DNA of 64,000 nt from Enterobacteria phage GiZh. Made by a program: the position numbers and the translations under genes. Below the pieces are notes generated by a model, which was given only the letters and a program-made list of their open reading frames with translations, was not told the origin of the DNA and made no database searches. Positions 2,526 through 50,070 of this stretch are shown piece after piece (position 1 is the first letter of the stretch; the number at the start of each line of letters is the position of its first letter). Location: the sequence record NC_054903.1. The stretch is one strand, 5' to 3'.

Positions 2526-3550
2526 ATCTTAGCATATTTAGATAACCGCATTTTAGCCATCAACCCCTGGGCAATATTATTTTTCATATATTCCATAATT
2601 TGTTCAGGGGTTGCACCTTCCTTTCTAATCATATCATTAACATCTTTTGATTTCCAGGGAGATTTATCCCAAAACATAACCCTTTCTCCTGCATCAACTA
2701 ATTTAGTCATTCGCTTAATAGTGTCAGGATGACGAGGTTCATTATCTAAGACCCACACACGCCTATCTTTAAATGGAACAACTTCTAGGTCTAATTGACC
2801 ACCCGTAATAGCTATACCATTTTCAATAAAAAGTGAATCTATAGGTCCTTCTAAAACATATACATCACCATCTTTAACTCGTTCGACTCCATATATTTTT
2901 GTTGCCTCAGGATAAGCTTTGATGGTGATATATTTTTGAGGAGCATCTTTCTTTAATGCACGTCCTTGAAAAGACTCAGCTTTTCCATTAGCATTATAAA
3001 TTGGAATAACAAGACGAGGCTCAGAAATTTCCTTTTTGTATGTTCCCGGTGCTATGCTATTAACTAATTTAGGCCATTCAGTTGTAAACCAAAGATATTT
3101 CCATTTATCCTTTGGAATACAACGAGCTTTTACATATTTTATAATTGCATGGTCTTCCGCCAGTTTATCTAATCGAACACATGACGGAAGAGATTTAATT
3201 ATTTTCTTCTCAGGTTGTTTAGGAAGTTCTTTAGGTTTTTCTACTGGACGACTTTTACCTTTTTCTTTTCTTATTTCAAAGATATACTCACGATATAAAT
3301 CAGGTTCAAACTCCTTTAAATATATTCCGATTGGTGCATGATAGTTACAGTTATAACAATGAATATTTCCTTCATTATTATCACCATAATACCATCCACG
3401 AGCTTTATTCTGGTCGGTTTTTGAATCTCCACAAACAGGACATCTAAACCGTAATTTAAAAGTTGAACTATTATTTACTTGTGTGAATTTAGGTAAATGA
3501 GCTAATGCACGGTATGCAAACTCATTATCAATCCAAGGTATTGATGACAT
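2522..3550 (-). CDS. 61: DNA primase gp61
   Basis: 342 aa; MSSIPWIDNEFAYRALAHL..., zinc ribbon CPVCG...CYNC, TOPRIM-like VLDNEPRH; ATG verified at 3550-3548. Confidence 0.9.
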   Translation of the reverse strand: MSSIPWIDNEFAYRALAHLPKFTQVNNSSTFKLRFRCPVCGDSKTDQNKARGWYYGDNNEGNIHCYNCNYHAPIGIYLKEFEPDLYREYIFEIRKEKGKSRPVEKPKELPKQPEKKIIKSLPSCVRLDKLAEDHAIIKYVKARCIPKDKWKYLWFTTEWPKLVNSIAPGTYKKEISEPRLVIPIYNANGKAESFQGRALKKDAPQKYITIKAYPEATKIYGVERVKDGDVYVLEGPIDSLFIENGIAITGGQLDLEVVPFKDRRVWVLDNEPRHPDTIKRMTKLVDAGERVMFWDKSPWKSKDVNDMIRKEGATPEQIMEYMKNNIAQGLMAKMRLSKYAKI

Positions 3551-3713
3551 TTTTACTCTTCTTTTTCTTTAGATTCCTCTTTTTTTTAGGAATCTGTTCA
3601 GGACCTTTATTTACTACAGCGCCTGATGTTGTTCCAGTAGAGATATTTTCAGGATTACCACCTGAATCTCCAGCTACCATATCTTCTTTAATAAATTCTT
3701 TATATGTTTTCAT
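3528..3713 (-). CDS. small basic protein with capsid-targeting-like N-terminus
   Basis: ATG 3713-3711 with AGAGGT RBS; N-terminus MKTYKEFIKE; C-terminal KKKRNLKKKKSKN; 23-nt out-of-frame overlap with gene 61 start. Confidence 0.5.
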   Translation of the reverse strand: MKTYKEFIKEDMVAGDSGGNPENISTGTTSGAVVNKGPEQIPKKKRNLKKKKSKNVINTLD

Positions 3714-7360: not shown

Positions 7361-8516
7361 TTAACTGCTCGAGGTCAGTTTCTAAATCAGCAGCTGATTT
7401 ACTTTTACTTTCTGGAGATTTAAATTTTTCAACCTTTGAGTTAATCAATTCATCAACTTCAGCTTCAACAATTTCATTACTATCAATAGCACCTAACTGA
7501 TAAGCACGTTTAATAGCATCTCGGAATGGTTGATGCTTAAATAAAGGACCCCAGAATGTGGTGCAGTTGGTATCTTTTGCACGCCAAGATTTTTCTTCGC
7601 GAATCATCTCACCGGTTTCTTCATCAAGAAATTCACGAGCATACCAACCATTTTTAGGTTTTACCACGAATCCTAATTCTAGAGCCATATCTAACAATCC
7701 AGAATAAGGATCGATACCGCCGTCAAATTTAACATCAATAAAGAATTTACTTTTTTCTTTAACGGTACGAGATTTTTCTACATTTAGAACAAATTGATAC
7801 CCCTGAAGATCAGAACCATCTTTAATCTGGCGTTTACCGATAATGAATACAGTATCAGCCGAATACATTACGCCTGTACCACCTGTCATCACGGTTTTAC
7901 TAAACATTTCAATTGTTTCAATTGTATGGTTAACCGCAACACATGGAATATTTTTAATGCTAAAATAAGGAGTAACAATACGGAATAATGACTTCAGTGA
8001 TTTAGCACGAGTCATATCTGCCACAGATTTTTCATTCAAGGCATCTTCCGTTTCTTTCTTAGAAGCCATATTACCGATTGAGTCGATGAATACAATAACC
8101 TTTTCACCACGCTCAATAGCTTCAAGCTGATTCACCATATCAATTTTCAGCTGTTCAACTGACTGGATTGGCGTATGAATTACTCGTTCCGGGTCAACTC
8201 CCATGGATCGCAAATAAGCTGGAGTAATACCAAATTCGCTATCATAGAATAGACAAACCGCGTCAGGATATTTGTTCAAATACGCCGCAACCATAGTCAA
8301 AGACATATTTGATTTAAAGTGTTTAGAAGGACCTGCAAAAATAGTTAAACCAGACTGCATGCCGCCATCAATCGCACCAGAAATAGCAATATTAAGCATT
8401 GGAATTTTTGTACGAATTACATCCTTTTCATTAAAGAATTTAGATGTAGTCAGTTCAGCAGTCATTTTAGAAGTGGAAGCTTTAATCAAACGGGATTTTA
8501 AATCTGCAATAGACAT
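7335..8516 (-). CDS. uvsX: recombinase UvsX (RecA/Rad51 family)
   Basis: 393 aa; ATG verified; Walker A GPSKHFKS; near-identical to recalled T4 UvsX over most of its length. Confidence 0.95.
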   Translation of the reverse strand: MSIADLKSRLIKASTSKMTAELTTSKFFNEKDVIRTKIPMLNIAISGAIDGGMQSGLTIFAGPSKHFKSNMSLTMVAAYLNKYPDAVCLFYDSEFGITPAYLRSMGVDPERVIHTPIQSVEQLKIDMVNQLEAIERGEKVIVFIDSIGNMASKKETEDALNEKSVADMTRAKSLKSLFRIVTPYFSIKNIPCVAVNHTIETIEMFSKTVMTGGTGVMYSADTVFIIGKRQIKDGSDLQGYQFVLNVEKSRTVKEKSKFFIDVKFDGGIDPYSGLLDMALELGFVVKPKNGWYAREFLDEETGEMIREEKSWRAKDTNCTTFWGPLFKHQPFRDAIKRAYQLGAIDSNEIVEAEVDELINSKVEKFKSPESKSKSAADLETDLEQLSDMEEFNE

Positions 8517-8593
8517 TCATTTTTTCCATAGGCATCATTATATTTTCCTCACTGGTTAAAGATAGAGTAATTATAACACAATAAATTTAGGCA

Positions 8594-9436
8594 TTAATCA
8601 ACTGCTATTGGATGAATAGCATTAAACTTATGAAATGCTTCTGATTTTTCTTTACGCGAAACACACATGCGAAGAACCTTTAGTGGTTCATCTTCTTCAC
8701 CCAACGATTTTCGTTTTTCAATATTAGAAGTTTTCCAACGAGCTTGCTCTGGAAACTCTCTATTGATTTGCTCAAGCGCTCTATTATGTTTAGAATTACT
8801 GCGAATTGAACTGCACCCGCCAGGAGCTTGTGCTTTTCCAGATACAACCAGATATTTGAACAAGGCCAAATGCGGATAACCTTGATTAATTAAATTGAGA
8901 AATGCATACATATCTTCGCACAAATCAATTTTTCCATACCCAATTTGTTCTGTCGTAAGTTTTCCAAGGTCATACCATGTATTCGTGAATCCATATGAAT
9001 TTTCACGATAATTACCCCAAGATGAAGTAATTTTAAAAATAGGTAGACGAGCATGGCCATGATAATACCCACAATCCATGGCATCCTCAACATATTGAAT
9101 CAATTCATAGAACTGTTCACGAGTCAATTGATTGACTTTATCCACACAACGACGATCATCTCTTTTTCGCATTGAACTCATACGAATAGTAGTATCATCG
9201 TCAATCATCCAGATTCGTTGACCTGCATACATATCAGTAATTGCTTTACGAGTGCCGGCAATTCCGTTTACATCATCAGGAATAGTTACAATTTTAGCTC
9301 TAGACCCGTAAGCGTCATAATAAGCTTTTTCTTCGTGTTCACGCACTACAATATGGGGTTCATAATCAGTCGGAAACATATCAAGGGCAGAAACTGCCCC
9401 TACACGTTGATAGCTCGGAATTACGAATTGAATCAT
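8594..9436 (-). CDS. putative glycosyltransferase (occupies the T4 segA/beta-gt position)
   Basis: 280 aa from verified ATG 9436-9434 (ATGA overlap with gene 42 stop); DxD-like IDDDTT motif; does not resemble recalled T4 beta-gt. Confidence 0.45.
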   Translation of the reverse strand: MIQFVIPSYQRVGAVSALDMFPTDYEPHIVVREHEEKAYYDAYGSRAKIVTIPDDVNGIAGTRKAITDMYAGQRIWMIDDDTTIRMSSMRKRDDRRCVDKVNQLTREQFYELIQYVEDAMDCGYYHGHARLPIFKITSSWGNYRENSYGFTNTWYDLGKLTTEQIGYGKIDLCEDMYAFLNLINQGYPHLALFKYLVVSGKAQAPGGCSSIRSNSKHNRALEQINREFPEQARWKTSNIEKRKSLGEEDEPLKVLRMCVSRKEKSEAFHKFNAIHPIAVD

Positions 9437-10173
9437 TTCCACTCACCGTTATAATCTTTTTTCACAATATGAGTTTCGCCAGTATTCCACCAATGATCAA
9501 CCAAGTAAAAATGACGAGAATATACATGAAGACTTCCAACATTCCATATAATAGAACCTGCTTTATACTGACGAGTTGAATCGCCTGCATTCAAATCAGA
9601 TACTAATTTATCTAATACGTATTTTTGCCATGCATAATCATTACGGAATCCGAAGACCACGTCATTTGAGCGCATGCTTACTACTGCATTGACTTTCTTA
9701 TCACGAATCAGGTACTGTACTGTATTAGTACACATGAAATCTGACATACCATCTTTATTGTAGTCAAATTGCATGGATGGACGAGTATAAATCATGATAC
9801 CACGTCGAGAATCAGGATTTTGACCAAGTTCAGCTAAACACATATCATACTGGGCATAGTTATCTTCTGACCAAATAGCCCAACCATAATTCGAGTTAAT
9901 TTCGCCTTTAGAAGATGCTACCTGCTGCCAAATCTTTGGTGTTTCACCTGGAATATCTTTAACAAACAAGCTCTTAGATTTATACCATTCAAGTTCACGC
10001 TGAATGTATTCATCATTAAGAGCGCCAAAAATAAACGGTTCATCTGCTACAAATGATGCGCCAATAATTTCAATAGTTTTAACACCAGTTTTATCAACTA
10101 CGAAATCTTTTTCCTTTAATGCAAGCCCCAAATGAAGACGGATTTCTTCAACTGTCATAGAGTCACTAATCAT
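9433..10173 (-). CDS. 42: dCMP hydroxymethylase gp42
   Basis: 246 aa; MISDSMTVEEIRLHLGLALKEKDFVVDKTG...; ATG verified. Confidence 0.9.
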   Translation of the reverse strand: MISDSMTVEEIRLHLGLALKEKDFVVDKTGVKTIEIIGASFVADEPFIFGALNDEYIQRELEWYKSKSLFVKDIPGETPKIWQQVASSKGEINSNYGWAIWSEDNYAQYDMCLAELGQNPDSRRGIMIYTRPSMQFDYNKDGMSDFMCTNTVQYLIRDKKVNAVVSMRSNDVVFGFRNDYAWQKYVLDKLVSDLNAGDSTRQYKAGSIIWNVGSLHVYSRHFYLVDHWWNTGETHIVKKDYNGEWK

Positions 10174-15331: not shown

Positions 15332-16291
15332 TCACTTCCACTGCATTTCGCATGCTAATTGAATGAAAAGATATGCTAAATGTAATTCCGTATTAGCCGC
15401 AATTCCATGATACTGGTTATTTTCACCAACAATTTCATACATACGAATAATACTTTGCGGAGTTACGCGTGTATAGATTTCTTCGGCAAGTTTACCAACG
15501 AACCACGAATAATCAGCCGCATATTTTGGTGCTAAAGCTCTGAGTTGTTTAACATCTTTATTTTTGAGAGACTCAAGAACATCATCAATAGCACCACGAT
15601 CGTTAGTAACCAGTGATAAAATACCAGCATCCAAAACACCTTTAGACGAATAACTATCGAGCTCGCCAATAGTTTTACGAAAATCAGGAAAATTCTTTTT
15701 AACCAAAGCTGCTACAACTTTCATATCAGCTATAGCAATTCCTTCATGCTTACAGATTTCAGTCAATCGACGAATCATCTGCTTCATCATTTCAATTTTA
15801 TCTTCATCGGTTGGTTGACCGAACGTAATAACTCGGCAGCGTGACTGAAGTGGTTTAATAATACCATCAATATTGTTAGCAGTAATAATAATACTACAGT
15901 TTGAACTATAAGCTTCCATAAAGGAACGAAGATGTCGCTGAGACTCTGCTAACCCTGAACGGTCAAATTCATCAATAACGATTACTTTTTGACGACCATC
16001 AAATGAAGCTGCACTAGCAAAATTAGTTAAAGGACCACGAACGAAATCAATTTTACAATCTGACCCATTCACAAACATCATATCAGCATTTACATCATGA
16101 CACAATGCTTTTGCTACAGTTGTTTTACCTGTTCCTGGAGAAGGAGAATGAAGAATAATATGTGGAATCTTACCTTTACTTGTAATAGATTTAAAGGTTT
16201 CTTTATCAAAGGCGGGAAGAATACATTCATCGATAGTAGATGGACGATATTTCTGTTCAAGAATGTGTTCTTTTTCATTTACAGTAATCAT
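15332..16291 (-). CDS. 44: clamp loader ATPase gp44 (AAA+)
   Basis: From ATG 16291-16289 (RBS GAGGAAA): [18 protein letters not shown]..., Walker [11 protein letters not shown]; track start 16306 is TTG. Confidence 0.95.
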
Positions 16292-16325
16292 AATTTCCTC
16301 ATTCAAGTTTTAGTGTAAATTATAA

Positions 16326-16339
16326 AGGGCCGAAGCCCT
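16326..16339 (-). terminator. UUCG-tetraloop hairpin between genes 45 and 44
   Basis: minus strand AGGGC-UUCG-GCCCT; could attenuate or structure the 45-44 transcript. Confidence 0.5.
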
Positions 16340-16342
16340 CTA

Positions 16343-17029
16343 TTAAAAATCGTGGGTAGAATCAGCTTCAAGAGCTACTACATAATTCGCATGTTCACCT
16401 TCAAATTTAGCAGCACCTTGTTTACCTTTTGCCCAGAGCAGAAGTTTATAATTTCCTGGTTGCATTTTCATATTTGCCATATTGATAATGAAATTAAATG
16501 TATTTTCACCATCATAATCACCAAGAGTCAAAGAATATTTAACACGAGTCAAAGCAGAATCTTCTACTTTATTAAAACCGTTAATTACGATTTTACCTTC
16601 TTTTACCGTGATAGCAATTGTATCAATTTGCAGACCACGAGATACACGCAACAGTTGTTGAAGGTCTTCAGCTTTAATTTCAGTAACAACAGATGCTACC
16701 GGGAATGGAATTGGTTTATTAGGAGCAACTACTGTACTCGGATCGGCTGCTGGCCAAAAAATTGTTGAACGAGCATCAGCAATTTTAATATTTCCATCTT
16801 CTGACTGGGAAATTTCTGCATCATCATTAACTAGAGACAGAATACCAAGAAAACCGTTCAAATCGTAAATCGCTACATCAAAATCAATAGTGTCAGAAAT
16901 ATTTGCTTCTGCATAAGTTGTACCATTAACTGCGCGAGTCATAATAAATTGACCTGATTTAAGCATAATGCCAGAGTTAATAGTAGCGAAATTTTTCAAA
17001 ATATTCAGTGTGTCTTTAGATAATTTCAT
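16343..17029 (-). CDS. 45: sliding clamp gp45
   Basis: 228 aa; MKLSKDTLNILKNFATINSGIMLKSGQFIMTRAVNGTTYAEANISD...; ATG verified. Confidence 0.95.
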   Translation of the reverse strand: MKLSKDTLNILKNFATINSGIMLKSGQFIMTRAVNGTTYAEANISDTIDFDVAIYDLNGFLGILSLVNDDAEISQSEDGNIKIADARSTIFWPAADPSTVVAPNKPIPFPVASVVTEIKAEDLQQLLRVSRGLQIDTIAITVKEGKIVINGFNKVEDSALTRVKYSLTLGDYDGENTFNFIINMANMKMQPGNYKLLLWAKGKQGAAKFEGEHANYVVALEADSTHDF

Positions 17030-17913
17030 TTCAATTTCCTATTTACATAATAGTTAGACCAGGACCGTACAGCACCCTGATAAGATTCGTCGTTAAACCC
17101 ATTAGCTACTGCAATTTTACGAAATTTATTATAACTTGGTTTTCCGTAAGCATGCCATAAAGATTTTAATTCATCTTCATGTTCAATCCAAGTTCCTCTA
17201 GCTTTAGATTTTCTAAATTTTGATTTGAATTCCGGTAAATTATTTCTAACAGTTGCTTGAATTGAAGCTCTCTGTCTTCTTTCAGCATTATTCCATAATT
17301 CTTTTTGAGATTTAGAAATTTTTGATCTTACACTTTCTGAATTCATTATATCACTAAACTTTTTAGCATAACTACAATCAAGATATTTCAATTTCATCTT
17401 ATTTGAGAGTTTAAGCTTTTTCTCATCGGTCCAGTGATTCTTCATTGAATTAGATATTTTGTATTTTACTTCAGAACTATGTTTGTAACCTTTACGAATA
17501 CCGACATACTCAGGCGTAATTTCAGATTGCGAAAGCTTTACAATTTTTCCAGTTAAAACATTTTTATATGTTCCATATCCTTTAGCACCAATTAAAGTAT
17601 TTTCATCTGCGTATGCTTTATTAAAATATTTTATATTACTCTTTGCTTTAACTTTTAATTGAAAAAATCTCTCCAATTTTCTTGGATCTAATATAGTTTC
17701 AGCTAAAATTTTGACGGTATATTTAGTGGTTTTAATAAGTTCAAAATATTCATCGCTATAACTCGATGACACGCTTCCAGTATAAATCTTTCCAGCTGAA
17801 TCAATTATATTTGTTCCATCGAAAATTGCGTTAATTTTTGAACCTATATAATAACACGGAAAAATATTTTTAGCTTCCCGCTCTGGAAAGCTAATAAGAT
17901 ATACTAAATTCAT
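17026..17913 (-). mobile_element. freestanding GIY-YIG-like homing endonuclease gene (between rpbA and 45)
   Basis: 295 aa; N-terminal VYLISFP-(10)-YYIGSK (GIY-(X10)-YIG pattern); Lys-rich C-terminal half with NUMOD-like repeats; no gene sits here in recalled T4 order. Confidence 0.55.
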
Positions 17914-18299
17914 TTATTAAACTCGGCCACAATTGTTTCCGCAACAATTTGTGCAGCAACAATCAGACGTTCATCTGCATTACCGCAATAATCATCTTCA
18001 AGGCGTTCACCACATGAAGTCATAATAAATTTAGCACCGGCGTTTAGGGATTCTGTAGTATGTTTGCGCATTAGTTCAATCCATTTATTACTTACTTCAC
18101 GATCGATAGCTTCATAATACGCATGACGAGCAGGTGCAGATTTAATTTTGTTCTGAATAACTTCCATTGCGTTATCAGAAAGAGACAAAACCCATGCGCG
18201 ACGAATTTTATTTTGGTTTTGTGGATTTGATTCAGAACGCACGTGTTTTGGCTGAATATCTTTTACATCAACAGTATAATTCACAGTAATTTTAGTCAT
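17910..18299 (-). CDS. rpbA: RNA polymerase-binding protein RpbA
   Basis: 129 aa, position between 46 and 45 as in T4; ATG verified. Confidence 0.75.
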
Positions 18300-20495: not shown

Positions 20496-20682
20496 TATCT
20501 AAAATGTTGAAGTTAAAAGATACAGCCCAGTCAGTGCAGACTGTAACCTTTTTAATACAATTATCTTCAACCTCTAGCGGTTCAAACCAATATTCAATAA
20601 TTTCTTTATGTCCAATATCATCTTTTACTTCGCATTCAAAATGCTGACTCATCATAACATTTTTAAATTCATCAAAAGTCAT
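20419..20682 (-). CDS. hypothetical protein (46.1/46.2 position)
   Basis: 87-aa ORF, ATG verified, ATGA-type overlap with gene 47 stop. Confidence 0.5.
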   Translation of the reverse strand: MTFDEFKNVMMSQHFECEVKDDIGHKEIIEYWFEPLEVEDNCIKKVTVCTDWAVSFNFNILDNDTPKSLRDMAVSCIKDAYCEVFDI

Positions 20683-21698
20683 TGTGTTGCCTCTACATAT
20701 AGCTGATTTGCATATTGAATAAGTGCTTCGCGATCAGAATCAGTGATGTCTGGAATTGCATTAATGTATTCTTCCATCAATGTCTGAAGAGATTGAACTT
20801 CAACTTCTTCACTGTCATCTGACTCAACAGAGTTATCAATCTTTGACACAACTCGTAATGAATGCACAACTTTTTCTAGTTCAGATTCGAACTTCGTTAG
20901 ATTTTTGTCTACTTCAGTTACTATAACACGTACTGATAGATTTGTAAAATCTTTATAGTCAATTTTTCCTTTAAATGGATAATGAATTCTACGATGCCAT
21001 GTAGTATTGTTTGGAATAAATTCCATTCGTTCTGTTTCTGTATCAAACATCCAGAACCCGCGAGGGTCATTCTCGTCACCTGCAGTTAGTGTCCATGGTG
21101 TCCCAATATATCTGACGTTAGCAGCCTCAGAAATAGTATGGAAGTGACCAGACCACACTTCCTTATAAGTCTTAAGGAAATCAGGTTCAAGACCGTGAGA
21201 TTTCATTCCTTTATAAAAATAAAATCCGTTCAGTTCCCAGTGACCAACACAAAAAGAAGCAGAAGAAGTTTTTATGTGCTCGAGAATTTCACCAGTATTT
21301 TCTTCACACATCCAAGGAATTAAATCAATTAAACATCCGTCAAAATCTACTGTAGTAGGCTTATCATATACTTTAACATTAGGATATTTAGCCAAAAGCT
21401 CAGTAGAGGCATTTGGATGCATTACATTTTTGTAGTGGAGATCGTGATTTCCTACAATAGTATGTAATGTGATTCCAGCATCATCAAGCATTTGAACTAT
21501 TTCACGAGCAAACTCCATAGTTTTATGCGTGATTGCTTTTCGCACATCAAAAATATCACCGTATTGAATCCAGGTAGTAATTCCATTTTTCTTAGAATAT
21601 TCTATCGCTTGTTTAATTCCATCAATTTGAATACCGCGAATCCACTCATCATCAGCTTTAACGCCTAAATGCCAATCACCCAAGTTTAGTATTTTCAT
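20679..21698 (-). CDS. 47: recombination endonuclease subunit gp47 (Mre11/SbcD-like)
   Basis: 339 aa; phosphoesterase motifs GDWHLG, GDIFD, GNHD; ATG verified. Confidence 0.95.
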   Translation of the reverse strand: MKILNLGDWHLGVKADDEWIRGIQIDGIKQAIEYSKKNGITTWIQYGDIFDVRKAITHKTMEFAREIVQMLDDAGITLHTIVGNHDLHYKNVMHPNASTELLAKYPNVKVYDKPTTVDFDGCLIDLIPWMCEENTGEILEHIKTSSASFCVGHWELNGFYFYKGMKSHGLEPDFLKTYKEVWSGHFHTISEAANVRYIGTPWTLTAGDENDPRGFWMFDTETERMEFIPNNTTWHRRIHYPFKGKIDYKDFTNLSVRVIVTEVDKNLTKFESELEKVVHSLRVVSKIDNSVESDDSEEVEVQSLQTLMEEYINAIPDITDSDREALIQYANQLYVEATQ

Positions 21699-22299
21699 GG
21701 TGTCTTTTCCATCCTAATTTAGCTGCTTTTGAAACCAGTTCTTTAATTTTTCCTTTTGTCCATTCAGGACCAGGAGGTTCATGACATAACATTTGCTTAA
21801 CTCCGTTATTATACCATTTTTTACCTTTATTATGTGATGAAGCTTTAAATTTATTTGACCTTCCTTTTACATAACCTTCTGGAATATAAGGTAAAAATGC
21901 AGATTTTCCTGTTAATGGATCATGTGAATGTATATTTCCTTTACAATTATGAGAACCATATAATGGATGATTTTTTCCTTTAATATCTCTTCCAAATGAA
22001 CCTTTTGGAGCAGCATATGACATATTAAAGAATAATGGATTTTTAACTGCATCATGCAATCGTTGATAATATAACTCGCATTTAATAGCTTCTTCACGCG
22101 TATCAAATTCAGCTAAAATGCATGAATCAAATAAGTGAGGATTATCTGAAAGCTCTTTATTATAAATTTTCTTATACTTTTTAGATAAAACTGAACCATG
22201 ATATCCAGCTAAATGCCTATCTAAAGACGTAGATCCAATATAAAAAGGAGGAAGTTTATCTCCACTATATATTGTTAAATAAGTTATATATTTTTTCAT
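21676..22299 (-). mobile_element. freestanding GIY-YIG-like homing endonuclease gene (between 47 and a-gt)
   Basis: 207 aa; YLTIYSGDKLPPFYIGSTS, then R/H (DRHLAGYHG), E (REEAIKCE), N (KNPLFFN); basic Gly/Lys-rich C-terminus; ATG verified. Confidence 0.55.
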
Positions 22300-22460
22300 A
22301 TATCAAGAACCGTCATTGAAATGCAAAATAAAATTATTGAAATAAATCCATCTGGCGTGCTAAAGAACCCAATCCAACATGCTCTAGCAAATAGATAAAA
22401 TGCAAGAAAAAGTATCACATATCCAAGAAATATCATTATATCAAACTCCGTATAAAGCTA

Positions 22461-22477
22461 AAGGGCCGAAGCCCTTT
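22461..22477 (-). terminator. UUCG-tetraloop terminator at the end of a-gt
   Basis: minus strand AAAGGGC-UUCG-GCCCUUU followed by U/A-rich tract. Confidence 0.55.
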
Positions 22478-23678
22478 ATTTTGTAATAATGTCAAACTGT
22501 TCTTTAAAGCAGAAGCTTGAATCTTGGTGCTGATACAAAAATTCATATGCTTTTTCTCGCTCACGGTCATAAAGAGCTCGGTCAGATGACAGTTCTTTAA
22601 TACGTTCAAATGTTGATTCCATATCATTTTCATCAAACCAAATGATACCGCTATCATGCGAGGTCAAAGGAGTATTATCAACACGGAATTTTAAATTTTC
22701 GCCAGTAGATTTCCAAAATACCGGAATTGTTCCACATGCACCAAGCTCGAGATGAGTATATTCTAAAGAGCGCTGTAGATATTTTTTATCCAACTTACTC
22801 AACTGATAACCAAAACCGGATTTACTCATACGTTCAAGCATTTCGCTATTTACATAACGGTCAAGAATTTGCGTTGGCAAATTAGGAGCAATTTTAATTT
22901 GGTCTACTTGATGAAGACGATAATACTCGTATGGAATTCCTTTTTCTTTAATAGGAATGAACGCTGGAGAACGTTCCAGACCTTCCATAATAGTACTTAG
23001 TCCTGCAGGTTTAAGATGTTTTTCATGAAAATCAAACATCTGATAAAAACCTTTCCATGTAGTCGTACGACCAATCCAACGGTTGATATTCATGTTAATT
23101 TCAGAAACATCTTTCCAGTAGGTTGATCGAACCTTCGCAATATCCATAGGAGGCTGAAAGTTATATACTGTCGGTGCTTCTTCAATATCATCAAACAGAG
23201 AAACAGTTTCTGGATACCACTCTTTCATCAGAACTTTATTAAAATCACCATTATCAGAATGGCTAAAAATAACATCAGCTCGACGAACAGTTTCTTCTAA
23301 TCCCAAATTTCGACGCAAAGAAAGAGAAGAATGGTCATGCTGATAAACTACAACACGAACAGAAGGTTTAATGTTATCAATAATTTTTTTATAGTTATTA
23401 ATAGTGTCTTCTTCAACCGAAGTAGCAGGAACTGAATTGATAATTAGAATATCACAATCATTTACCAGCTTAAGTGTTTTATCGTATTCTTTTGCCAATA
23501 AAACCGGAATTGAAAATGATTTATAATCATGCGCGCAATTACGAGTAAATGATTTATCTTTAGCATAAACCAAAGTTACTTCATGACCATTTTTAATAAA
23601 CCAATCACGTTGCTCGAGTGAGAATTTTGTTACACCACAACCTTCAAGACCTCGAGCCATAAAAATACATACTTTCAT
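22476..23678 (-). CDS. agt: DNA alpha-glucosyltransferase
   Basis: 400 aa; MKVCIFMARGLEGCGVTKFSLEQRDWFIKNGHEVTLVYAKDKSF... matches recalled T4 a-gt; ATG verified. Confidence 0.9.
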   Translation of the reverse strand: MKVCIFMARGLEGCGVTKFSLEQRDWFIKNGHEVTLVYAKDKSFTRNCAHDYKSFSIPVLLAKEYDKTLKLVNDCDILIINSVPATSVEEDTINNYKKIIDNIKPSVRVVVYQHDHSSLSLRRNLGLEETVRRADVIFSHSDNGDFNKVLMKEWYPETVSLFDDIEEAPTVYNFQPPMDIAKVRSTYWKDVSEINMNINRWIGRTTTWKGFYQMFDFHEKHLKPAGLSTIMEGLERSPAFIPIKEKGIPYEYYRLHQVDQIKIAPNLPTQILDRYVNSEMLERMSKSGFGYQLSKLDKKYLQRSLEYTHLELGACGTIPVFWKSTGENLKFRVDNTPLTSHDSGIIWFDENDMESTFERIKELSSDRALYDREREKAYEFLYQHQDSSFCFKEQFDIITK

Positions 23679-23702
23679 TTAATATCCTCATTGTTTTGGT
23701 TT

Positions 23703-23727
23703 ATTTTACCAAAAATTTATAAAGCAA
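23703..23727 (-). promoter_or_regulatory. candidate MotA-dependent middle promoter for a-gt
   Basis: minus strand TTGCTTTA box, ~11 nt, TAAAAT, about 25 nt upstream of a-gt ATG. Confidence 0.4.
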
Positions 23728-23729
23728 TA

Positions 23730-23747
23730 TAGGAGCCGAAGCTCCTA
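23730..23747 (-). terminator. UUCG-tetraloop hairpin
   Basis: minus strand UAGGAGC-UUCG-GCUCCUA. Confidence 0.45.
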
Positions 23748-23921
23748 TCCGCATAATACACCGTATAGAGGCTCATTAGAGCTTCTAAATTTTATACGCT
23801 TATATGTTATAGTTCCTTCTGCTTTAGCTTTATCATGAGACTCTTTAAAGCGTCTCATCATTTCCTCTTTAGAGGAACGAATTTTATTATAATCTATTTC
23901 AGAAGTCTGGGTGTTCATCTT

Positions 23922-24128
23922 TCATAGTTGCCACCATTTTTTGACTTGATAGGAATCAACCCACACTTTCATATTAGGGTCTGCTCTTACAATAGGAGGA
24001 TTAACTTCTTTAATTGAACTATCATGGTATTCTTTTTCAGAAATTTTCACACAAAGATGACCATTCAAAGATTCAGTAAATCCTGCATTAATTTTAAGAC
24101 GCTTGAATTTTACGTGTGTAAGCATCAA
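23922..24128 (-). CDS. hypothetical protein
   Basis: 68-aa ORF in same-strand operon between 55 and a-gt. Confidence 0.4.
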   Translation of the reverse strand: MMLTHVKFKRLKINAGFTESLNGHLCVKISEKEYHDSSIKEVNPPIVRADPNMKVWVDSYQVKKWWQL

Positions 24129-24411
24129 TCATATCCTCAATTTGCGATCTAGTAGTCTTCCAAAGAATACTGATGAGTTCATCGTTATATGGCTGTTTTA
24201 GAATATCCCGACTTTTCTTGATAGCATATTCGTATTGAGCAAAATTATTATTTTCAGCTGCGATCTGAGCGTGCTTATAAAGACGATTCAGTTCACGTTT
24301 GTTTTTAGACAATAACTTATTTGCTTTTCTTTCTGCTTCAAGACGGTTCTTTTCTTCAATAGAAGAAATAAGCTTTTCCACTTCATCATTAATTTCGGGT
24401 TTATCAGTCAT
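24094..24411 (-). CDS. hypothetical protein
   Basis: 105-aa ORF, charged/helical; overlaps neighbours. Confidence 0.45.
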   Translation of the reverse strand: MTDKPEINDEVEKLISSIEEKNRLEAERKANKLLSKNKRELNRLYKHAQIAAENNNFAQYEYAIKKSRDILKQPYNDELISILWKTTRSQIEDMIDAYTRKIQAS

Positions 24412-24412
24412 A

Positions 24413-24631
24413 TTATTTCTCTAATATAAAATAAAAATCATCATCTGTTAAATGATACCTGTAATTTAATTCTACACCATTAGATTTAAAAGCGGTATCA
24501 TACGGATTTTCTGGATCAATATCAATGTCAAGAGCTAAAACTTCCCTGAGATACATTTTAAGCAAATAGGGAATAGCTTCAACTTCAGGTATTTCTTCCA
24601 AGAATCCGGAGAGGTTAATCGTTAGCCTCAT
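24413..24631 (-). CDS. hypothetical protein
   Basis: 72-aa ORF immediately downstream of gene 55. Confidence 0.45.
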
Positions 24632-25172
24632 ATAAAAAATCCAAACTAGGAGAATCGTCTACAACACTTTTCTTTTCAGCCCCCGGTGTTCTATAGGTTG
24701 ATTCTTCGTAATGCGTCATTTTATCGTAGATGTCTTGAATAAAAGTTTCATCTACTAACGCAACCATATCGTCGTCACGACTGTCATAGACATTGTGAAC
24801 GAAGTAACTATATTTCTTTGCAACTTCCTTACGTTCTTTTTTAATACGCTGGACGAATGCATTAAAACAAGCTTGAGTTATATACGCATGTGGGTTTTTA
24901 TATTTCGTTTCATCAAAATTATGAAGCCCCTTAATAGAAGCTTCTATACCATCTGCAATCATTTCTTGTTTCCAAGACTGGGTGTATCCTGAAAAGTTGA
25001 AACGTTTAGATAAGCCTTCTGCAATAAGCATAATGGCTAATCCGATAGTATCATTCTGACGAACTACTTTATTTGGGTCTTTATTATTTGCTAATTCTGT
25101 TTTCCAATCAATAATAGCTTGTAAAAGCTCTTTATTGTTTACGTAATTATATTTAGGCTTAGTTTCTGACAT
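24615..25172 (-). CDS. 55: late-transcription sigma factor gp55
   Basis: From ATG 25172-25170: [54 protein letters not shown]..., 185 aa. Confidence 0.9.
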
Positions 25173-25250
25173 TTTCACCTCTTAGCTCAATTCATAGATC
25201 TATTATATCATAATATTTGAAGATCTATCTTAAAGCATAGAGGATATCAG

Positions 25251-25520
25251 TTATCTAAGTAAACAGTATGCTTGGAATACTTTCTCCATCATCTTTTTAA
25301 ATTCATGAATATCTATATAATGACTAGTTAGATCAGCATGATATAAAAAGTCTAAAAACTTTTCATGTGTACTAACATATTCACTTTCATTTAATTCAGA
25401 AACATGGCTTTCCCAATATCCAACACCAGTCTTATTTGGGAAAAATGAAATTTTCATGTATTGGTCAACATAGAAAATGCCATAATTTTCAATAGTAATA
25501 GAAATATTAATAAATTTCAT
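25251..25520 (-). CDS. hypothetical protein
   Basis: 89-aa ORF upstream of 55 in same operon direction. Confidence 0.45.
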   Translation of the reverse strand: MKFINISITIENYGIFYVDQYMKISFFPNKTGVGYWESHVSELNESEYVSTHEKFLDFLYHADLTSHYIDIHEFKKMMEKVFQAYCLLR

Positions 25521-28190: not shown

Positions 28191-30004
28191 TGGTGTTTAA
28201 CCCTATGCATGATTTCTTTATTTTTACCGAGATTAAATCCGCGCTCGTTCGGATTTCCCAAATAACCACATGTTCTTCTTATGGTATTCATCTTTTTAGG
28301 ATCAGTTTCTCCACAAATAGAACAAACAAATCCGTTTTCAGTAGGAGTCATTTCATGGGTACTTCCACATGTAAAACATTTATCTACTGGCATATTAACA
28401 CCAAAATAATCTAAATGTTGTGCAGCATAATCCCATACGGCCTCAAGACCTTTTAAGTTATTTTTCATATCAGGAAGTTCAACATAAGAAATGTGACCAC
28501 CTGTCGCAATGAAATGATATGGCGCTTCACGAGAAATCTTTTCAAACGGAGTAATATTTTCTTCTACTGAAACATGGAAACTGTTAGTGTACCAGCCTTT
28601 ATCAGTAACATCTTTTACACTTCCATATTTTTCTGTATCAAGTTTACAGAAGCGATAACAAAGGTTTTCAGCAGGAGTCGAATATAAACTAAAAGCAAAT
28701 CCAGTTCTTTCAGTCCACTGTTTAAGATGAGCATTCATTTTAGTTAAAATTTCTCGTCCAATATCACGACCGACAAGAATATTCAATTCGTGAATACCAA
28801 TGTATCCTAAAGACACTGAACTTCTACCGTTTTTAAATAACTCAATTATGTCGTCATCAGGTTTAAGACGAACCCCGAATGCACCTTCTTGGTAAAGAAT
28901 AGGAGCAACAGTAGCTTTAACTCCTTTTAAGGAACTAATTCTACACATCAAAGCTTCAAAACACAGATCCATTCGTTCATTGAATAATTCAACAAATTTC
29001 TGTTCATTGAACTGTGTTCCAATATAAGAATCTAACGCGATGCGAGGAAGATTCAGTGTTACAACACCAAGATTATTACGTCCATCAAGAATTTCATTAC
29101 CAGTCGAATCTTTCCATACGCTCAAGAAACTACGGCAGCCCATTGGAGAAACCGGAACTGAAGAACCAGTAATAGCTTTATTATTCTTAGCTGAAATAAT
29201 ATCAGGATACATTCTTTTGCTTGCACATTCTAGAGCAAGCTGTTTAATATCATAGTTCGGATCGTCTTTATAAAGATTAACACCTTCTTCAACGAACATA
29301 ACAAGCTTAGGGAAAATAGGAGTTATCCCATCACGACCGAGACCTTTAATACGATTTTTCAGAATTGCTTTCTGAATCATTCGTTCAGTCCAGTCAGTTC
29401 CTGTACCAAATGTAATTGTTACAAAAGGTGTTTGTCCGTTTGAACTAAAGAGAGTATTTACTTCATATTCATAAGCTTGGAATGCATCGTATACGTCTTT
29501 TTCTGTTTTAGATTGAGCATAATTCAACGCATCAGCGATTTGCCATTTTTCTGCATCCTCAATATGTTTTGCATAGGTGCGTTTAACATAAGGAGAAAGT
29601 ACTTTATCTACATTCGCAAAAGTCGTTCCGCCATATTGATGGGAAGCAACTTGCGCAGTAATTTGTGCCATAATTGCAGTAGCAACGCCAATTGATTTAG
29701 GAGTTTCAATCTGTGCATTACCAAGCTTAAATCCGTTCTCAAGCATTCCTTTTAAATCTACTAAACAGCAATTAGTAAATGGAAGAGCAGGGGAATAATC
29801 AATATCATGGAAATGAATAATTCCGCTTTCATGCGCTTTCATAATAAAAGACGGGACCATATTTTTGGCAATGTGTTTAGACACAATACCAGCCATAAGG
29901 TCCCGTTGAGTTGGAAAAACACGAGAATCTTTATTAGCATTCTCGTTTAAAAGGTCTTTATTAGTTTTATGAATCAATCCTTCAATTTCTTTTTCAATTG
30001 TCAT
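28187..30004 (-). CDS. nrdD: anaerobic ribonucleoside-triphosphate reductase NrdD (glycyl radical enzyme)
   Basis: 605 aa uninterrupted; C-terminal glycyl radical motif RTCGYLGNP and Zn-ribbon CFTCGSTHE...CSICG. Confidence 0.95.
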   Translation of the reverse strand: MTIEKEIEGLIHKTNKDLLNENANKDSRVFPTQRDLMAGIVSKHIAKNMVPSFIMKAHESGIIHFHDIDYSPALPFTNCCLVDLKGMLENGFKLGNAQIETPKSIGVATAIMAQITAQVASHQYGGTTFANVDKVLSPYVKRTYAKHIEDAEKWQIADALNYAQSKTEKDVYDAFQAYEYEVNTLFSSNGQTPFVTITFGTGTDWTERMIQKAILKNRIKGLGRDGITPIFPKLVMFVEEGVNLYKDDPNYDIKQLALECASKRMYPDIISAKNNKAITGSSVPVSPMGCRSFLSVWKDSTGNEILDGRNNLGVVTLNLPRIALDSYIGTQFNEQKFVELFNERMDLCFEALMCRISSLKGVKATVAPILYQEGAFGVRLKPDDDIIELFKNGRSSVSLGYIGIHELNILVGRDIGREILTKMNAHLKQWTERTGFAFSLYSTPAENLCYRFCKLDTEKYGSVKDVTDKGWYTNSFHVSVEENITPFEKISREAPYHFIATGGHISYVELPDMKNNLKGLEAVWDYAAQHLDYFGVNMPVDKCFTCGSTHEMTPTENGFVCSICGETDPKKMNTIRRTCGYLGNPNERGFNLGKNKEIMHRVKHQ

Positions 30005-40120: not shown

Positions 40121-40578
40121 TCAGCCTTATATTCAATAACAGGACATACTTTAGCTTTACGCGCTTTTAAAAATTCGACGATAACCGATTTCTTGGGTTG
40201 AATAGGAGGTAAACCTTTATACGCCCTATCAATATTTTCTACGTGTAAAGCATAATCCTTTTTCCATTTATAATCTTTATATTTTTCACGCAAATGTGCA
40301 GGAATAACAAATGAACCGATAATAAGTAAAACAACCAAAAGCGCAAGTATAAATGCCGATGGAAGAAGAGTCCATAAACTACCGAAAATAAGCCAACGTT
40401 GTAGGCTTTCTGCACAAATAATTGTTAGCCCTACGAGTATAGCACATCCAAAAATAGAAACGAAAAATGTAGGAATGGCAATAGACCAAAAATATGCGCA
40501 TAGTGTCTTAGGTCGTTGCCATTCATCGTTAAACAATTTGAATAATTTATAATGCCAAGAGTTTTCATTAATAATCAT
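40117..40578 (-). CDS. membrane protein
   Basis: 153 aa, two or three predicted TM helices. Confidence 0.5.
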   Translation of the reverse strand: MIINENSWHYKLFKLFNDEWQRPKTLCAYFWSIAIPTFFVSIFGCAILVGLTIICAESLQRWLIFGSLWTLLPSAFILALLVVLLIIGSFVIPAHLREKYKDYKWKKDYALHVENIDRAYKGLPPIQPKKSVIVEFLKARKAKVCPVIEYKAE

Positions 40579-40580
40579 AA

Positions 40581-41102
40581 TTATCCTTTCATTGAAGGTG
40601 TAACAGTTGTTAAATACTTAATCATAGCCTCAGCTTCTGATTTTGATAGTGAAATTTCTTCACCGTTTTGGCGAATAGAAACAAAATCTGGATGACGATC
40701 ACCACCAGCTTTTAAAACACACATATAAGTATCAGCTTCGCCTTCAATATTTGAAATGATTGAAGCAGTTCCACACGAATGTGGTTTTTGATAAATCAAT
40801 ACAGCTTTTCTTCCACCATTTGACTGTTCATAGGCTTTTAATACATCAAACAAATCAGTTCTTTTATCAATAGCTAAAATGTTATTTTCATCTTCAATGT
40901 TAAATCCTTCGGATACTTCATAAAGCGTTACCCATAAATCACCAATGTCAATAACAGCATTTACTTTTCCACGGCTTTCAAGAGTATGACAAATTTTCTT
41001 GATTTCGTCATAACTCATTTTAATAATATCATCTCCTTGAATAAGAAAGATGTCATTTTTAAATTCAACACGAATTAAACCACTTTCACTTGAAATAAAC
41101 AT
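40581..41102 (-). CDS. hypothetical protein (paralog of 41109-41480)
   Basis: 173 aa; C-terminus KSEAEAMIKYLTTVTPSMKG parallels the neighbour's KDEAIALKTYLDSVIPTMISK. Confidence 0.5.
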   Translation of the reverse strand: MFISSESGLIRVEFKNDIFLIQGDDIIKMSYDEIKKICHTLESRGKVNAVIDIGDLWVTLYEVSEGFNIEDENNILAIDKRTDLFDVLKAYEQSNGGRKAVLIYQKPHSCGTASIISNIEGEADTYMCVLKAGGDRHPDFVSIRQNGEEISLSKSEAEAMIKYLTTVTPSMKG

Positions 41103-41108
41103 ATTTCC

Positions 41109-41480
41109 TCACTTTGAAATCATAGTTGGAATGACAGAATCAAGATAAGTCTTTAGTGCAATAGCTTCGTCTTTGGTAAATGTGACAATATGTGCTCGAG
41201 AATCATCATTTTGGCGAACAAGTACGACATCGCCATCTTCATAAGAAGTCTTGACATCCAAAGTCGTAGTATAGTTTGCAGCTACTGGATTAATAATGTT
41301 AGCACCGCGATCTTTAGCCCATTGAAGTTTAGCCTTTTCGGGTGTTTCGGCTGTTTCAGATTCTAAGAATTCTTTCACCTTGGCAACGAATGTTGCCCAA
41401 TTGTTGATAGAAAGACACATAAATTCAGTTTCAAATATTACCGCCGTAAAGGCCACGATAAAAACGAACTTGGAGGTCAC
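41109..41480 (-). CDS. hypothetical protein (paralog of 40581-41102)
   Basis: 123 aa; shared C-terminal motif with neighbour. Confidence 0.5.
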   Translation of the reverse strand: MTSKFVFIVAFTAVIFETEFMCLSINNWATFVAKVKEFLESETAETPEKAKLQWAKDRGANIINPVAANYTTTLDVKTSYEDGDVVLVRQNDDSRAHIVTFTKDEAIALKTYLDSVIPTMISK

Positions 41481-41664
41481 CTGTAATATTAGTTACACCG
41501 GTAACTCCTGAGGGAGCATAAGATAAAATCGCAGCCAGTTCCATAGGAAGAATAGTAATACTATCGTCTTCCTGCGTCAGAACGTATACATTACCGCGTT
41601 TTTCGATAACTAGGTCACCGAACAAATCAGTTGTTTCAATTACAGCTTTCATATTATTTACCAA
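41431..41664 (-). CDS. hypothetical protein
   Basis: 77-aa ORF overlapping neighbours; start uncertain. Confidence 0.4.
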   Translation of the reverse strand: MVNNMKAVIETTDLFGDLVIEKRGNVYVLTQEDDSITILPMELAAILSYAPSGVTGVTNITGDLQVRFYRGLYGGNI

Positions 41665-41839
41665 TTAAAGTTTCAATATAAGAATCAAGATTTACTTTAG
41701 CTTCTTCCATAAGAGTTTTGTATTTAATCTTGTTAGCATGTCCGGAGAAAGCTGATTCATCAATAATTGTTGATGTATGAACAGCTTTACTATACGTCTC
41801 AATTAATTCTCTTAATTTAAAAGCCTGCTCACTTGTCAT
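41654..41839 (-). CDS. hypothetical protein
   Basis: 61-aa ORF, first gene downstream of early promoter at 41972-42002. Confidence 0.45.
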   Translation of the reverse strand: MTSEQAFKLRELIETYSKAVHTSTIIDESAFSGHANKIKYKTLMEEAKVNLDSYIETLIGK

Positions 41840-42850: not shown

Positions 42851-43237
42851 TTATTCGAGGGAAAGAAGATACTTACTCTGGTAAAACATTCCAGTAATAT
42901 CATCTATCGTGCTTTGGATGGCTGGAGGCATTTCTTTATAAATGCTGTTAGATTGGTCTAGTATGTGATCAATCATTTTAATTGTGTCGGTAGGAAGTTT
43001 ACTGGCATCTGGAATTGAAGGCGTGTATTTTCTACCAGAATACCCCAAATATTGCTCACCAAATTTATCAATCAAATCTGGCAACTCGGAGAAAATAAAA
43101 TCGTATGCTTTGTGTCTAGCATAACTTTTAGTTTCAAAATGTGCAGAATGAAAATAAGCTTGTGCAGCCATTAATAAACCTAAGTATTCATCTGCCTTTG
43201 AAGGTTTTCCACTTTGTGAAAAGTCGCTGAATTTCAT
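42851..43237 (-). CDS. hypothetical protein
   Basis: 128-aa ORF, stop just upstream of terminator. Confidence 0.5.
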
Positions 43238-43527
43238 TCAGTCTCCAATTTAATGTTCATAATTCTAGCGTATGATTGTGCCATCTCCGCGCCTCGTTCT
43301 ATACATTCAAAATCAGAAGAGCACGGGTCATTTTTATAGGTCGTTCTCATAAAACTATAGAATTGTTCAGACGATTCTACGCTTTTATTTTCAAAAAGTG
43401 TATAAACGTGCCTAATACCAGATTCCATAAATTTATCAAAATGAGGATCGACATTCGCTTCAATCGATGGAGATAAAACAAATGACAATCCTAGCATGGC
43501 AAAAAGTGCCGTTGCTTTTAAGGCCAT
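43234..43527 (-). CDS. secreted protein
   Basis: 97 aa with signal peptide MALKATALFAMLGLSFVLSPSIEA. Confidence 0.5.
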   Translation of the reverse strand: MALKATALFAMLGLSFVLSPSIEANVDPHFDKFMESGIRHVYTLFENKSVESSEQFYSFMRTTYKNDPCSSDFECIERGAEMAQSYARIMNIKLETE

Positions 43528-43539
43528 AAAGGCCTCCTA

Positions 43540-44740: not shown

Positions 44741-44968
44741 TCATTTTGGTTTACCTTCTTTAACGAAATCAGGATAAGGATAAAATCCTGAATAAAATCC
44801 TTCACCTTTATGATTGATGCATCCTTTATTAGAACAATAGCACCAATAATCGAAATCACAAGCCATTTCATCGTTGCATAAAGCAAAAACAACCGGCCAC
44901 TTACACTTTTCACAGTGGGCATTTTTAAGAATACTAGTTTGGCTCATAACCATGTAACCTTTAAGCAA
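44741..44968 (-). CDS. Cys-rich small protein (putative zinc-binding)
   Basis: 75 aa with CEKC...C..C and C..C.C...C..H patterns; competing overlapping frame 44737-44922 not preferred. Confidence 0.4.
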   Translation of the reverse strand: MLKGYMVMSQTSILKNAHCEKCKWPVVFALCNDEMACDFDYWCYCSNKGCINHKGEGFYSGFYPYPDFVKEGKPK

Positions 44969-45156
44969 TATTCTTCTACATGTTGTTTACGACCTTTCTT
45001 ATCAATAAAGGTATATTCAACGAATGTTCCAATGTAGTCTTTATCTACATCATGTGGACTATTAATTGGACATTTAGTACGGCAAATGCGTTCCCATTGA
45101 CGAATAATTACTGCTTTGTTTTTAGGATCAAACGGATGCGGGTAATGTACTTTCAT
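44944..45156 (-). CDS. hypothetical protein
   Basis: 70-aa ORF. Confidence 0.4.
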   Translation of the reverse strand: MKVHYPHPFDPKNKAVIIRQWERICRTKCPINSPHDVDKDYIGTFVEYTFIDKKGRKQHVEEYCLKVTWL

Positions 45157-45607
45157 AATCCACCACTATTAAATCAATATCAGGAGTAAACATGTCGATT
45201 AATTTAGAAACCTTATCCCAATCGCCGCCAGCAATACCACAACCTATGCGTGGAATGTAAATTACCGGTTTAAACAAAAGGGTTTCTGCCTGTAGATTTA
45301 ATTCTATCATGCAGTTTACTAAAGCACCATAATCAAGATTAGGACCTGGTTCGTATTGCGTATACAAGTTATAACATATGCCAAAACCATTAGGTTTATG
45401 TTTAAAAACAATAGACATATCGCCTAATTTATCACGAGAACCGTACTCAGTAGTGGTTTTATCTATTTCTAAAATTTTGGGATAGGCTCTTGCTAATTGA
45501 CCCGCTACACCTGAACCCATAGTATGAAAACAATTGCACCCGTGCGCAATAATATTACCTTGAAGAAATAGGGCGACAATATCGCCCTTGATATATTTTG
45601 CAATCAT
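45128..45607 (-). CDS. macro domain protein (ADP-ribose binding/processing)
   Basis: 159 aa; Gly-rich motifs NCFHTMGSGVAGQL and IGCGIAGGDW typical of macro domains. Confidence 0.6.
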   Translation of the reverse strand: MIAKYIKGDIVALFLQGNIIAHGCNCFHTMGSGVAGQLARAYPKILEIDKTTTEYGSRDKLGDMSIVFKHKPNGFGICYNLYTQYEPGPNLDYGALVNCMIELNLQAETLLFKPVIYIPRIGCGIAGGDWDKVSKLIDMFTPDIDLIVVDYESTLPASV

Positions 45608-49619: not shown

Positions 49620-49628
49620 ATGTTTCCT

Positions 49629-50045: not shown

Positions 50046-50070
50046 TTTATCCCTCCAATTAACTGTGAAT

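Follow-up and report, generated by a model that had tools for sequence, protein, structure and literature searches.

Our analysis showed that a 207-amino acid (aa) open reading frame (ORF) in the genome of Enterobacteria phage GiZh (NC_054903.1), which we call seg, has the fold and family membership of the GIY-YIG nucleases, occupies a precise and optional insertion, evolves under purifying selection, and keeps to a site beside gene 47 across phage genera. The reading that we favor, at a probability of roughly 80%, is that it encodes a GIY-YIG homing endonuclease of the T4 Seg type, an optional selfish insertion that would home by cleavage of the seg-less allele. The stretch of DNA that was analyzed is 64,000 nucleotides (nt) long, is referred to here as the window, and is part of a T4-like (Tequatrovirus) genome. 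An initial annotation of the window had proposed a 207-aa ORF with GIY-YIG motifs at 21676-22299, and an ORF is found at exactly these positions, on the minus strand, which the annotation had left unstated. The gene and its two regions are as follows.

21676..22299, minus strand: Seg-like, predicted free-standing homing endonuclease gene, 207 aa, ATG start (ORF; PHROG 10820, E 2.6e-94; phrog_314 'homing endonuclease')
21979..22299, minus strand: N-terminal GIY-YIG catalytic domain, residues 1-107
21676..21978, minus strand: basic C-terminal region, residues 108-207

We found 170 homologues of the protein, and residue conservation, a Pfam scan of the relatives, and an AlphaFold2 model were all based on 54 sequences. 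Because of these 170 homologues and a ratio of non-synonymous to synonymous substitutions (dN/dS) of about 0.07, we consider the ORF to be a real gene and not a chance one. Residues 1-107 alone matched Pfam PF01541 (GIY-YIG) at 23.4 bits, above the gathering cutoff of 22.6, and an HHalign comparison of the family's N-terminal domain with a profile of T4 SegA-E gave a probability of 95.6% (E 1e-8), with the signature YIG...GY.GS...F...E...(F/Y)N...GG common to both. In BLASTP searches against the proteins of T4, which form a small database, SegG was the best match (27% over 109 aa, E 1.5e-5), and SegE was matched at 29% over 193 aa (E 1.2e-4). The AlphaFold2 model had a predicted local distance difference test score (pLDDT) of 94-98 over residues 1-90; when it was compared with the PDB using Foldseek, I-TevI was the sole return, and the same comparison with viral models returned Seg-like and GIY-YIG homing endonucleases. 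The protein is therefore modeled with an alpha/beta catalytic domain of about 90-100 aa that has the GIY-YIG fold, and the fold check by AlphaFold2, Foldseek, Pfam, and HHalign upholds the endonuclease family that had been proposed at the outset. A search of NCBIfam with the protein matched no family.

The domain shared by the homologues is about 110 aa long. Its consensus begins with Y.TYLTIY.G.KLPPFYIGSTS..K...GY.GSV.SKKY...E...LF...I... and continues with TR.EA...E...Q...V....F.N...A.P.G.FG, and its conserved residues are Y7, Y11, Y20-I-G-S, K/R28, Y33, K40, R68, E75, and N92. E75 and N92 are invariant in all 54 homologues, and Y20, I21, G22, and S23 are found in 53 of them; taking equivalences from sequence alignments, T-I-Y11 and Y20-I-G22 are likewise present in 53 of the 54 sequences. 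Position 28 is more variable, being arginine in the window protein and lysine in 32, arginine in 13, and another residue in nine of the 54 sequences. The motif order that the initial annotation had read from the protein, Y20-I-G-S-T-S25, R28/H29, E75, and N92, is as described. We take the domain to be a divergent branch of the GIY-YIG family, with predicted nuclease activity.

The C-terminal half is basic and rich in glycine and lysine, also as initially annotated, with 21 lysines and arginines against seven acidic residues, and 13 glycines, among residues 101-207. It carries a NUMOD3-like G-x-N-H-P-L-Y-G motif (GKNHPLYG in the window protein, at about 21955-21981), and in the AlphaFold2 model it forms two beta-hairpin modules (WYNNG...P.W.KG) followed by a terminal helix at residues 186-203. 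Foldseek returned no solved homologue of this region from the PDB. Neither a zinc finger nor a helix-turn-helix match was detected, and I-TevI_ZnF was matched weakly in one of the 54 relatives. Based on its composition and the architecture of the family, this region presumably binds DNA, and we read the NUMOD3-like element as the linker that connects it to a catalytic domain of about 105 aa.

Apart from its domain, the gene is distinguished by the way in which it sits in the genome. The ORF had been placed between gene 47 and a-gt, which is correct; its immediate neighbors are gene 47 and the small gene 47.1. The genes and repeats at this locus are listed below.

20679..21698, minus strand: gene 47, Mre11/SbcD-like recombination nuclease (Pfam Metallophos; T4 annotation)
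22296..22436, minus strand: gene 47.1, 46 aa, annotated as a predicted membrane protein (phrog_6693; T4 annotation; alignment)
22476..23678, minus strand: a-gt (Pfam AGT, E 1.8e-237)
22293..22299, minus strand: left copy of the 7-nt direct repeat ATGAAAA, which includes the seg start codon (T4 alignment; sequence)
21692..21698, minus strand: right copy of the 7-nt direct repeat ATGAAAA, at the gene 47 start (T4 alignment)

All local genes are on the minus strand, in the transcription order a-gt, 47.1, the 207-aa ORF, 47, 46.2, 46.1, 46, so that the immediate upstream neighbor of seg is 47.1, between seg and a-gt. At its 3' end, the seg ORF shares 23 nt (21676-21698) with the 5' start of gene 47, in a different reading frame, and the seg ATG overlaps the 47.1 stop codon in the sequence ATATGA (4-nt overlap). 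The earlier statement that the start of the ORF overlaps the 3' end of gene 47 has to be reversed on both counts, as it is the 3' end of the ORF that overlaps the 5' start of gene 47, the ORF being upstream of gene 47 on the coding strand, and the start of the ORF overlaps the stop of 47.1 and not gene 47.

Over the 3.1 kilobases (kb) surrounding the ORF, Escherichia phage FriedrichMiescher shares 98.6% identity with the window, and matches to this region exist in several hundred T-even records. To count the alleles, we used a 1.4-kb probe across the site with a GenBank phage collection, which gave 526 matching records. The insert is present in 67 of these, about 13% of the Tequatrovirus records, and the others have an 800-base pair (bp) empty site; the insertion is 601 bp long (1401 minus 800 bases, 459 records) and lies between 47.1 and gene 47. 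Its boundaries are clean in comparison to T4, with one copy of the ATGAAAA repeat at each end. In T4, nothing separates 47.1 from gene 47, the stop of one and the start of the other overlapping within ATATGA, and the site is also empty in T2, RB51, and ime09. As these phages and most of the matching records lack it, the gene is not universal in T-even phages, and the proposal of an inserted, optional gene is borne out by the junction comparison. A scan of IMG/VR with gp47 returned 28 loci, and the Tequatrovirus insert was found in none of them. Because the left ATGAAAA copy supplies its start codon, seg takes over the translation start that is used by gene 47 in T4. The right copy of the repeat re-creates the start of gene 47, which now has the 3' end of seg as its upstream region. 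The gene is therefore free-standing, with neither an intron nor an intein, lies between conserved genes, and is optional in close relatives, as are the Seg genes.

The same position is kept in relatives from other phages. Full-length relatives with 51-69% identity were all found just 5' of a gene 47 homologue in the seven loci that we examined, and in six of these they abut or overlap it. The loci are those of a QL01-like phage (L028), a vB_EcoM_005-like phage (L031, about 200 nt upstream of gene 47), Escherichia phages AV114 and OR352946, a Klebsiella phage contig, Erwinia phage FBB1, and Aeromonas phage L9-6, the last of which has the same 23-nt overlap of seg and gene 47 as the window. By their record annotation, Salmonella phage SEA1 (80% identity) and Klebsiella phage HMGUkp2 (60%) also have copies over the gene 47 homologue. 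The upstream neighbor of these relatives differs, being 47.1, a-gt, a DUF2654 gene, or a DUF5486 gene, but gene 47 is constant. Its first codons encode a conserved MKILNxGD(W/L)H block, with G-D-W-H at codons 7-10, which we take to be phosphoesterase motif I. Relatives that have only the catalytic domain in common, with another, NUMOD3-rich C-terminus, sit 5' of gene 39 instead. GIY-YIG homing endonucleases are known to be modular, in that they keep the catalytic domain while exchange of the DNA-binding module goes together with a new site, and the relatives at gene 47 and at gene 39 follow this pattern, with a shared catalytic domain, a different C-terminus, and a different site.

We estimated selection from seven carrier copies that fall into two haplogroups. 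The pooled dN/dS of seg was 0.07 (synonymous difference, pS, 0.094), and in the same genomes it was 0.03 for gene 47 and 0.02 for a-gt. Between the two haplogroups, the synonymous difference is about 0.15 and the non-synonymous difference (pN) about 0.01. Together these values indicate that seg has remained protein-coding throughout the existence of the local Tequatrovirus diversity. The copy in the window is intact, and two broken copies were found, both damaged in the C-terminal region: GEP001 (1816-2364 of locus L040) has the nonsense mutation G183*, and ZCEC15 (1815-2306 of locus L041) has a 1-nt insertion that causes a +1 frameshift. Purifying selection together with a minority of broken copies is what should be expected of a homing endonuclease gene in a recombining population.

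We also compared about 2.4 kb of flanking sequence between seven carriers and 11 non-carriers of the T4 type. The only fixed differences are at 21690, 21684, and 21681, with 21689 nearly fixed, and all four changes are synonymous and lie within 18 nt of the insertion, in the following cluster.

21681..21690, minus strand: synonymous substitution cluster in gene 47 codons 3-6 (alignments; database counts)

These codons read ATA CTA AAC TTG in the window and ATT TTA AAT TTA in T4-type genomes. In the database, the seg junction occurs with the variant codons in 65 records, and the empty site occurs with T4-type codons in 428 records and with the variant codons in nine. A single record, ERS-1 (PP337211.1), joins the seg junction to T4-type codons; it is flagged UNVERIFIED_ORG and has several 1-nt indels in its seg copy, and we did not accept it as a true recombinant, since it may be a sequencing or assembly artefact. 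The nine records with an empty site and carrier-type codons include BCPEco_001, Ec_YwIITB1, SHFML-26, and UGKSEcP2 (at about position 1814 of loci L035, L037, L038, and L039). They could have arisen when seg was precisely deleted between the 7-nt repeats, or they could represent the ancestral allele that received the first insertion. The four silent changes within 10 nt, beside sequence that is otherwise identical, may be a signature of self-immunity or co-conversion in the target, and equally they could have come in as a short tract from a donor that was more divergent. Beyond 18 nt, the flanks are mosaic; for example, the gene 47 sequence closest to that of the window comes from a phage without seg.

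These results allow a more specific and more tentative proposal, in which the lineage is a dedicated gene 47 homing endonuclease that reads the first codons and the G-D-W-H block, codons 3-6 are a selected immunity, and the nine seg-less genomes with carrier-type codons are resistant to cleavage. We consider this possible, but would expect it to be wrong in at least some part more readily than right. If it is true, these phages would capture in nature how a homing endonuclease invades, becomes fixed, decays, and is lost, and would do so at a gene whose product is thought to help process the breaks needed for homing.

Under the Seg-type reading, we envision the following course of events, for which we infer nuclease activity, a cleavage position, immunity, and homing itself. 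In a mixed infection, the enzyme would bind through its C-terminal domain to the seg-less 47.1/47 region in the DNA of a related phage, and would cut within or close to the first codons of gene 47, a region that includes the conserved block that encodes G-D-W-H. For cleavage near this site there are indirect hints, namely the fidelity to gene 47 across genera and the cluster of silent changes in codons 3-6. The break would then be resected and repaired by the recombination-dependent pathway of T4 with the seg-carrying genome as template, and seg and adjacent markers would be copied into the recipient, as homing or localized marker exclusion. The DNA of carriers would be protected twice, as the site is split by the insertion and may be further altered by the four synonymous changes in codons 3-6. 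The gene uses the translation start of gene 47 in T4 and gives gene 47 a new upstream region, and no promoter of its own was found.

Several observations weigh against the Seg-type homing endonuclease. The whole protein scored 21.4 bits against PF01541 (E 3e-4), just under the 22.6-bit cutoff, and only 15 of the 54 family members matched this domain at E≤0.01. The residue equivalent to the catalytic arginine of I-TevI is mostly lysine, and is non-basic in nine of the 54 members. PDB sequence searches with the single protein and with the 54-sequence profile gave nothing relevant, so the link to solved structures is seen only at the level of the fold, and a direct HHalign comparison of the family profile with I-TevI was not significant (E 0.17). 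With respect to homing, the linked synonymous changes could have hitch-hiked from the original donor allele, and because they lie so close to the insert, linkage alone explains the association between codons and seg. We considered the changed codons 3-6 of the QL01-like phages as independent evidence of immunity and rejected them, as gene 47 there is more diverged throughout. The mosaic flanks are compatible with spread by gene conversion and equally with ordinary T-even recombination, and are thus no proof of homing. The carrier share of about 13% likewise fits preferential inheritance but is not specific to it. Characterized Seg enzymes often cut hundreds of bp away from their own gene, and cleavage may thus occur elsewhere than at codons 3-6.

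A first alternative is that the protein is a GIY-YIG nuclease of homing ancestry that now homes little, if at all, and is kept because it benefits the phage. Its role could be the cutting of competitor or host DNA, local recombination or amplification, or control of gene 47 expression. In its favor, purifying selection on seg comes near to that on the neighboring essential genes (0.07 vs 0.02-0.03), the deep divergence of the haplogroups implies long residence, and seg precedes and overlaps the start of a recombination nuclease gene whose upstream region it replaces. There is also a precedent for such a benefit, as SegB is reported in a 2026 paper to promote the amplification of anti-defense loci (PMC13096335). 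However, an actively homing element is also expected to be under purifying selection, and the site fidelity across genera is a prediction of homing. The low share of carriers and the absence of the gene from T4 and T2 mark seg as dispensable, some of its copies are disrupted, and a PADLOC search matched no defense family, leaving a defense or anti-defense assignment without support. We therefore regard a retained benefit as unlikely.

The broken copies could also be taken as a sign that seg is a decaying remnant, inactive and persisting only through its linkage to gene 47. The divergent GIY-YIG motifs and the borderline Pfam score would fit this, as would the nine empty sites with carrier-type codons, if these result from deletion between the 7-nt repeats. 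Against it, the window copy is intact, the catalytic-type residues E75 and N92 have been retained in every homologue compared, the low dN/dS extends over a pS of up to 0.15, and of the 67 high-identity records, all but one match most of the protein's length with at least 95% identity. It would be surprising if the lineage as a whole were inactive, and we give this explanation very little weight.

Finally, although phrog_10820 is labeled 'HNH endonuclease' and RefSeq and several GenBank records use this name, membership in the HNH family is hardly credible and is refuted by the domain and fold results, since neither the protein nor any of the 54 homologues matched an HNH Pfam family, there is no similarity to the HNH-type MobB-E of T4 (E≥0.18), the fold searches returned GIY-YIG nucleases only and no HNH or beta-beta-alpha-metal structure, and UniRef names the same cluster 'GIY-YIG domain-containing protein'. 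The label looks like an annotation carry-over from generic 'homing endonuclease' families.

With regard to expression, the promoter-like element closest to seg on the coding strand lies upstream of a-gt. It was identified solely by pattern, using the middle-promoter consensus generally known for T4.

23690..23728, minus strand: T4 middle-promoter pattern, consisting of a MotA box ATTGCTTTA, an 11-nt spacer, and TAAAAT (pattern search)

We found neither a late promoter (TATAAATA) nor a convincing sigma-70 promoter adjoining seg, so the gene is probably read within the transcription unit from a-gt to 46. A promoter and terminator scan gave nothing specific to the ORF, with fewer promoter-like sites than in shuffled sequence. 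In the same unit, a perfect 8-bp GC-rich hairpin (TAAAGGGCCGAAGCCCTTTA) at 22459-22478 overlaps the a-gt stop codon just upstream of 47.1; it has no T-rich tail on the coding strand, and for this reason looks like an RNA-stabilizing or processing element and not a terminator.

The gene can be compared directly with known systems. It shares with SegA-SegG of T4 an N-terminal GIY-YIG domain with the Seg-type signature YIG...GY.GS...E...(F/Y)N...GG, a length close to their ~200-220 aa, and a basic C-terminal region with NUMOD3-like elements, as well as an intergenic, optional, and compact insertion that overlaps its neighbors and is polymorphic for presence and absence among T-even phages. It differs from them in that even the nearest by sequence, SegG and SegE, are only 27-29% identical, with no tblastn match to T4 at E≤1e-5, and in its 47.1/47 site, which T4 leaves empty, its distinctive conserved N-terminus (Y.TYLTIY.G.KLPPFYIGSTS), and its C-terminal WYNNG-type hairpin modules, which lack a solved homologue; unlike theirs, its cleavage and homing are predictions. 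Judged by these testable features of its sequence, the gene belongs with the Seg-type free-standing GIY-YIG homing endonucleases and is none of SegA-G. I-TevI, from the td intron of T4 (1LN0, 1MK0), has a similar modular layout of catalytic domain, linker, and DNA-binding domain, and its Y17, E75, and N90 align with Y20, E75, and N92 in a forced global alignment that is indicative only. In contrast to I-TevI, seg is free-standing and not intron-encoded, and lysine predominates at position 28 of the family where arginine is canonical.

The window holds another Seg-like gene, which justifies the designation of seg as a second GIY-YIG-like ORF in the initial annotation. This 295-aa ORF (17026-17913, minus strand) lies between rpbA (17910-18299) and gene 45 (16343-17029), and over some 100 aa its N-terminus shares 40% identity with T4 SegG. 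The corresponding site in T4 spans only about 50 nt, so this ORF is another optional Seg-like insertion and presumably the gene that had been counted as the first. Like seg, it is an optional Seg-type gene at a site that T4 leaves without one, but the two have no detectable tblastn similarity at E≤1e-3, occupy different sites, and differ in the C-terminus, which is longer in the 295-aa protein. That protein has no Pfam GIY-YIG match and only a faint NUMOD3 match.

Further differences from T4 concern other homing genes. The window lacks mobB, with a-gt.2 directly after a-gt (23679-23744) where T4 has mobB between them, and mobC, as T4 42906-43538 has no counterpart between window positions 28170 and 28190. 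The nrdD gene appears to be intron-less, since the T4 group I intron with I-TevII (44814-45850) is absent at 29466-29469. The T4 segA and beta-gt region (23555-25497) is replaced by about 950 nt in the window and the segF/56/dam region (15610-17725) by about 960 nt, and the mobD region and the denV-ipII-ipIII region of T4 are likewise replaced. Window blocks without a T4 alignment are 8504-9451, 1356-2314, 40128-41836, and 49146-50056. In two other phages, SHFML-26 and BCPEco_001, an extra gene of about 855 nt lies directly downstream of 46.1 (3277-3648 of loci L038 and L035), where other loci have gene 46, and both loci end inside it. It is annotated as 'homing endonuclease' in SHFML-26 and represents a separate optional insertion within this gene cluster.

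The public names of the seg product include 'putative homing endonuclease' in the BASEL phages, 'GIY-YIG domain-containing protein' in UniRef, 'HNH endonuclease', and many cases of 'hypothetical protein'. A literature search, with subscription journals mostly outside its coverage, turned up no paper that describes a seg gene between 47.1 and 47. In its class the gene is ordinary, representing no new kind of system and nothing that would surprise a specialist. It nevertheless adds an uncharacterized, site-faithful lineage to the T-even Seg family and corrects the widespread mis-annotation as an HNH endonuclease in RefSeq and PHROGs. Because public genomes contain four natural allele classes, namely carriers, empty sites with T4-type codons, empty sites with carrier-type codons, and broken copies, target recognition, self-immunity, and the cycle of gain and loss are directly testable in this lineage. 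Free-standing homing endonucleases shape the survival of markers in mixed infections and the mosaic boundaries of T4-like genomes.

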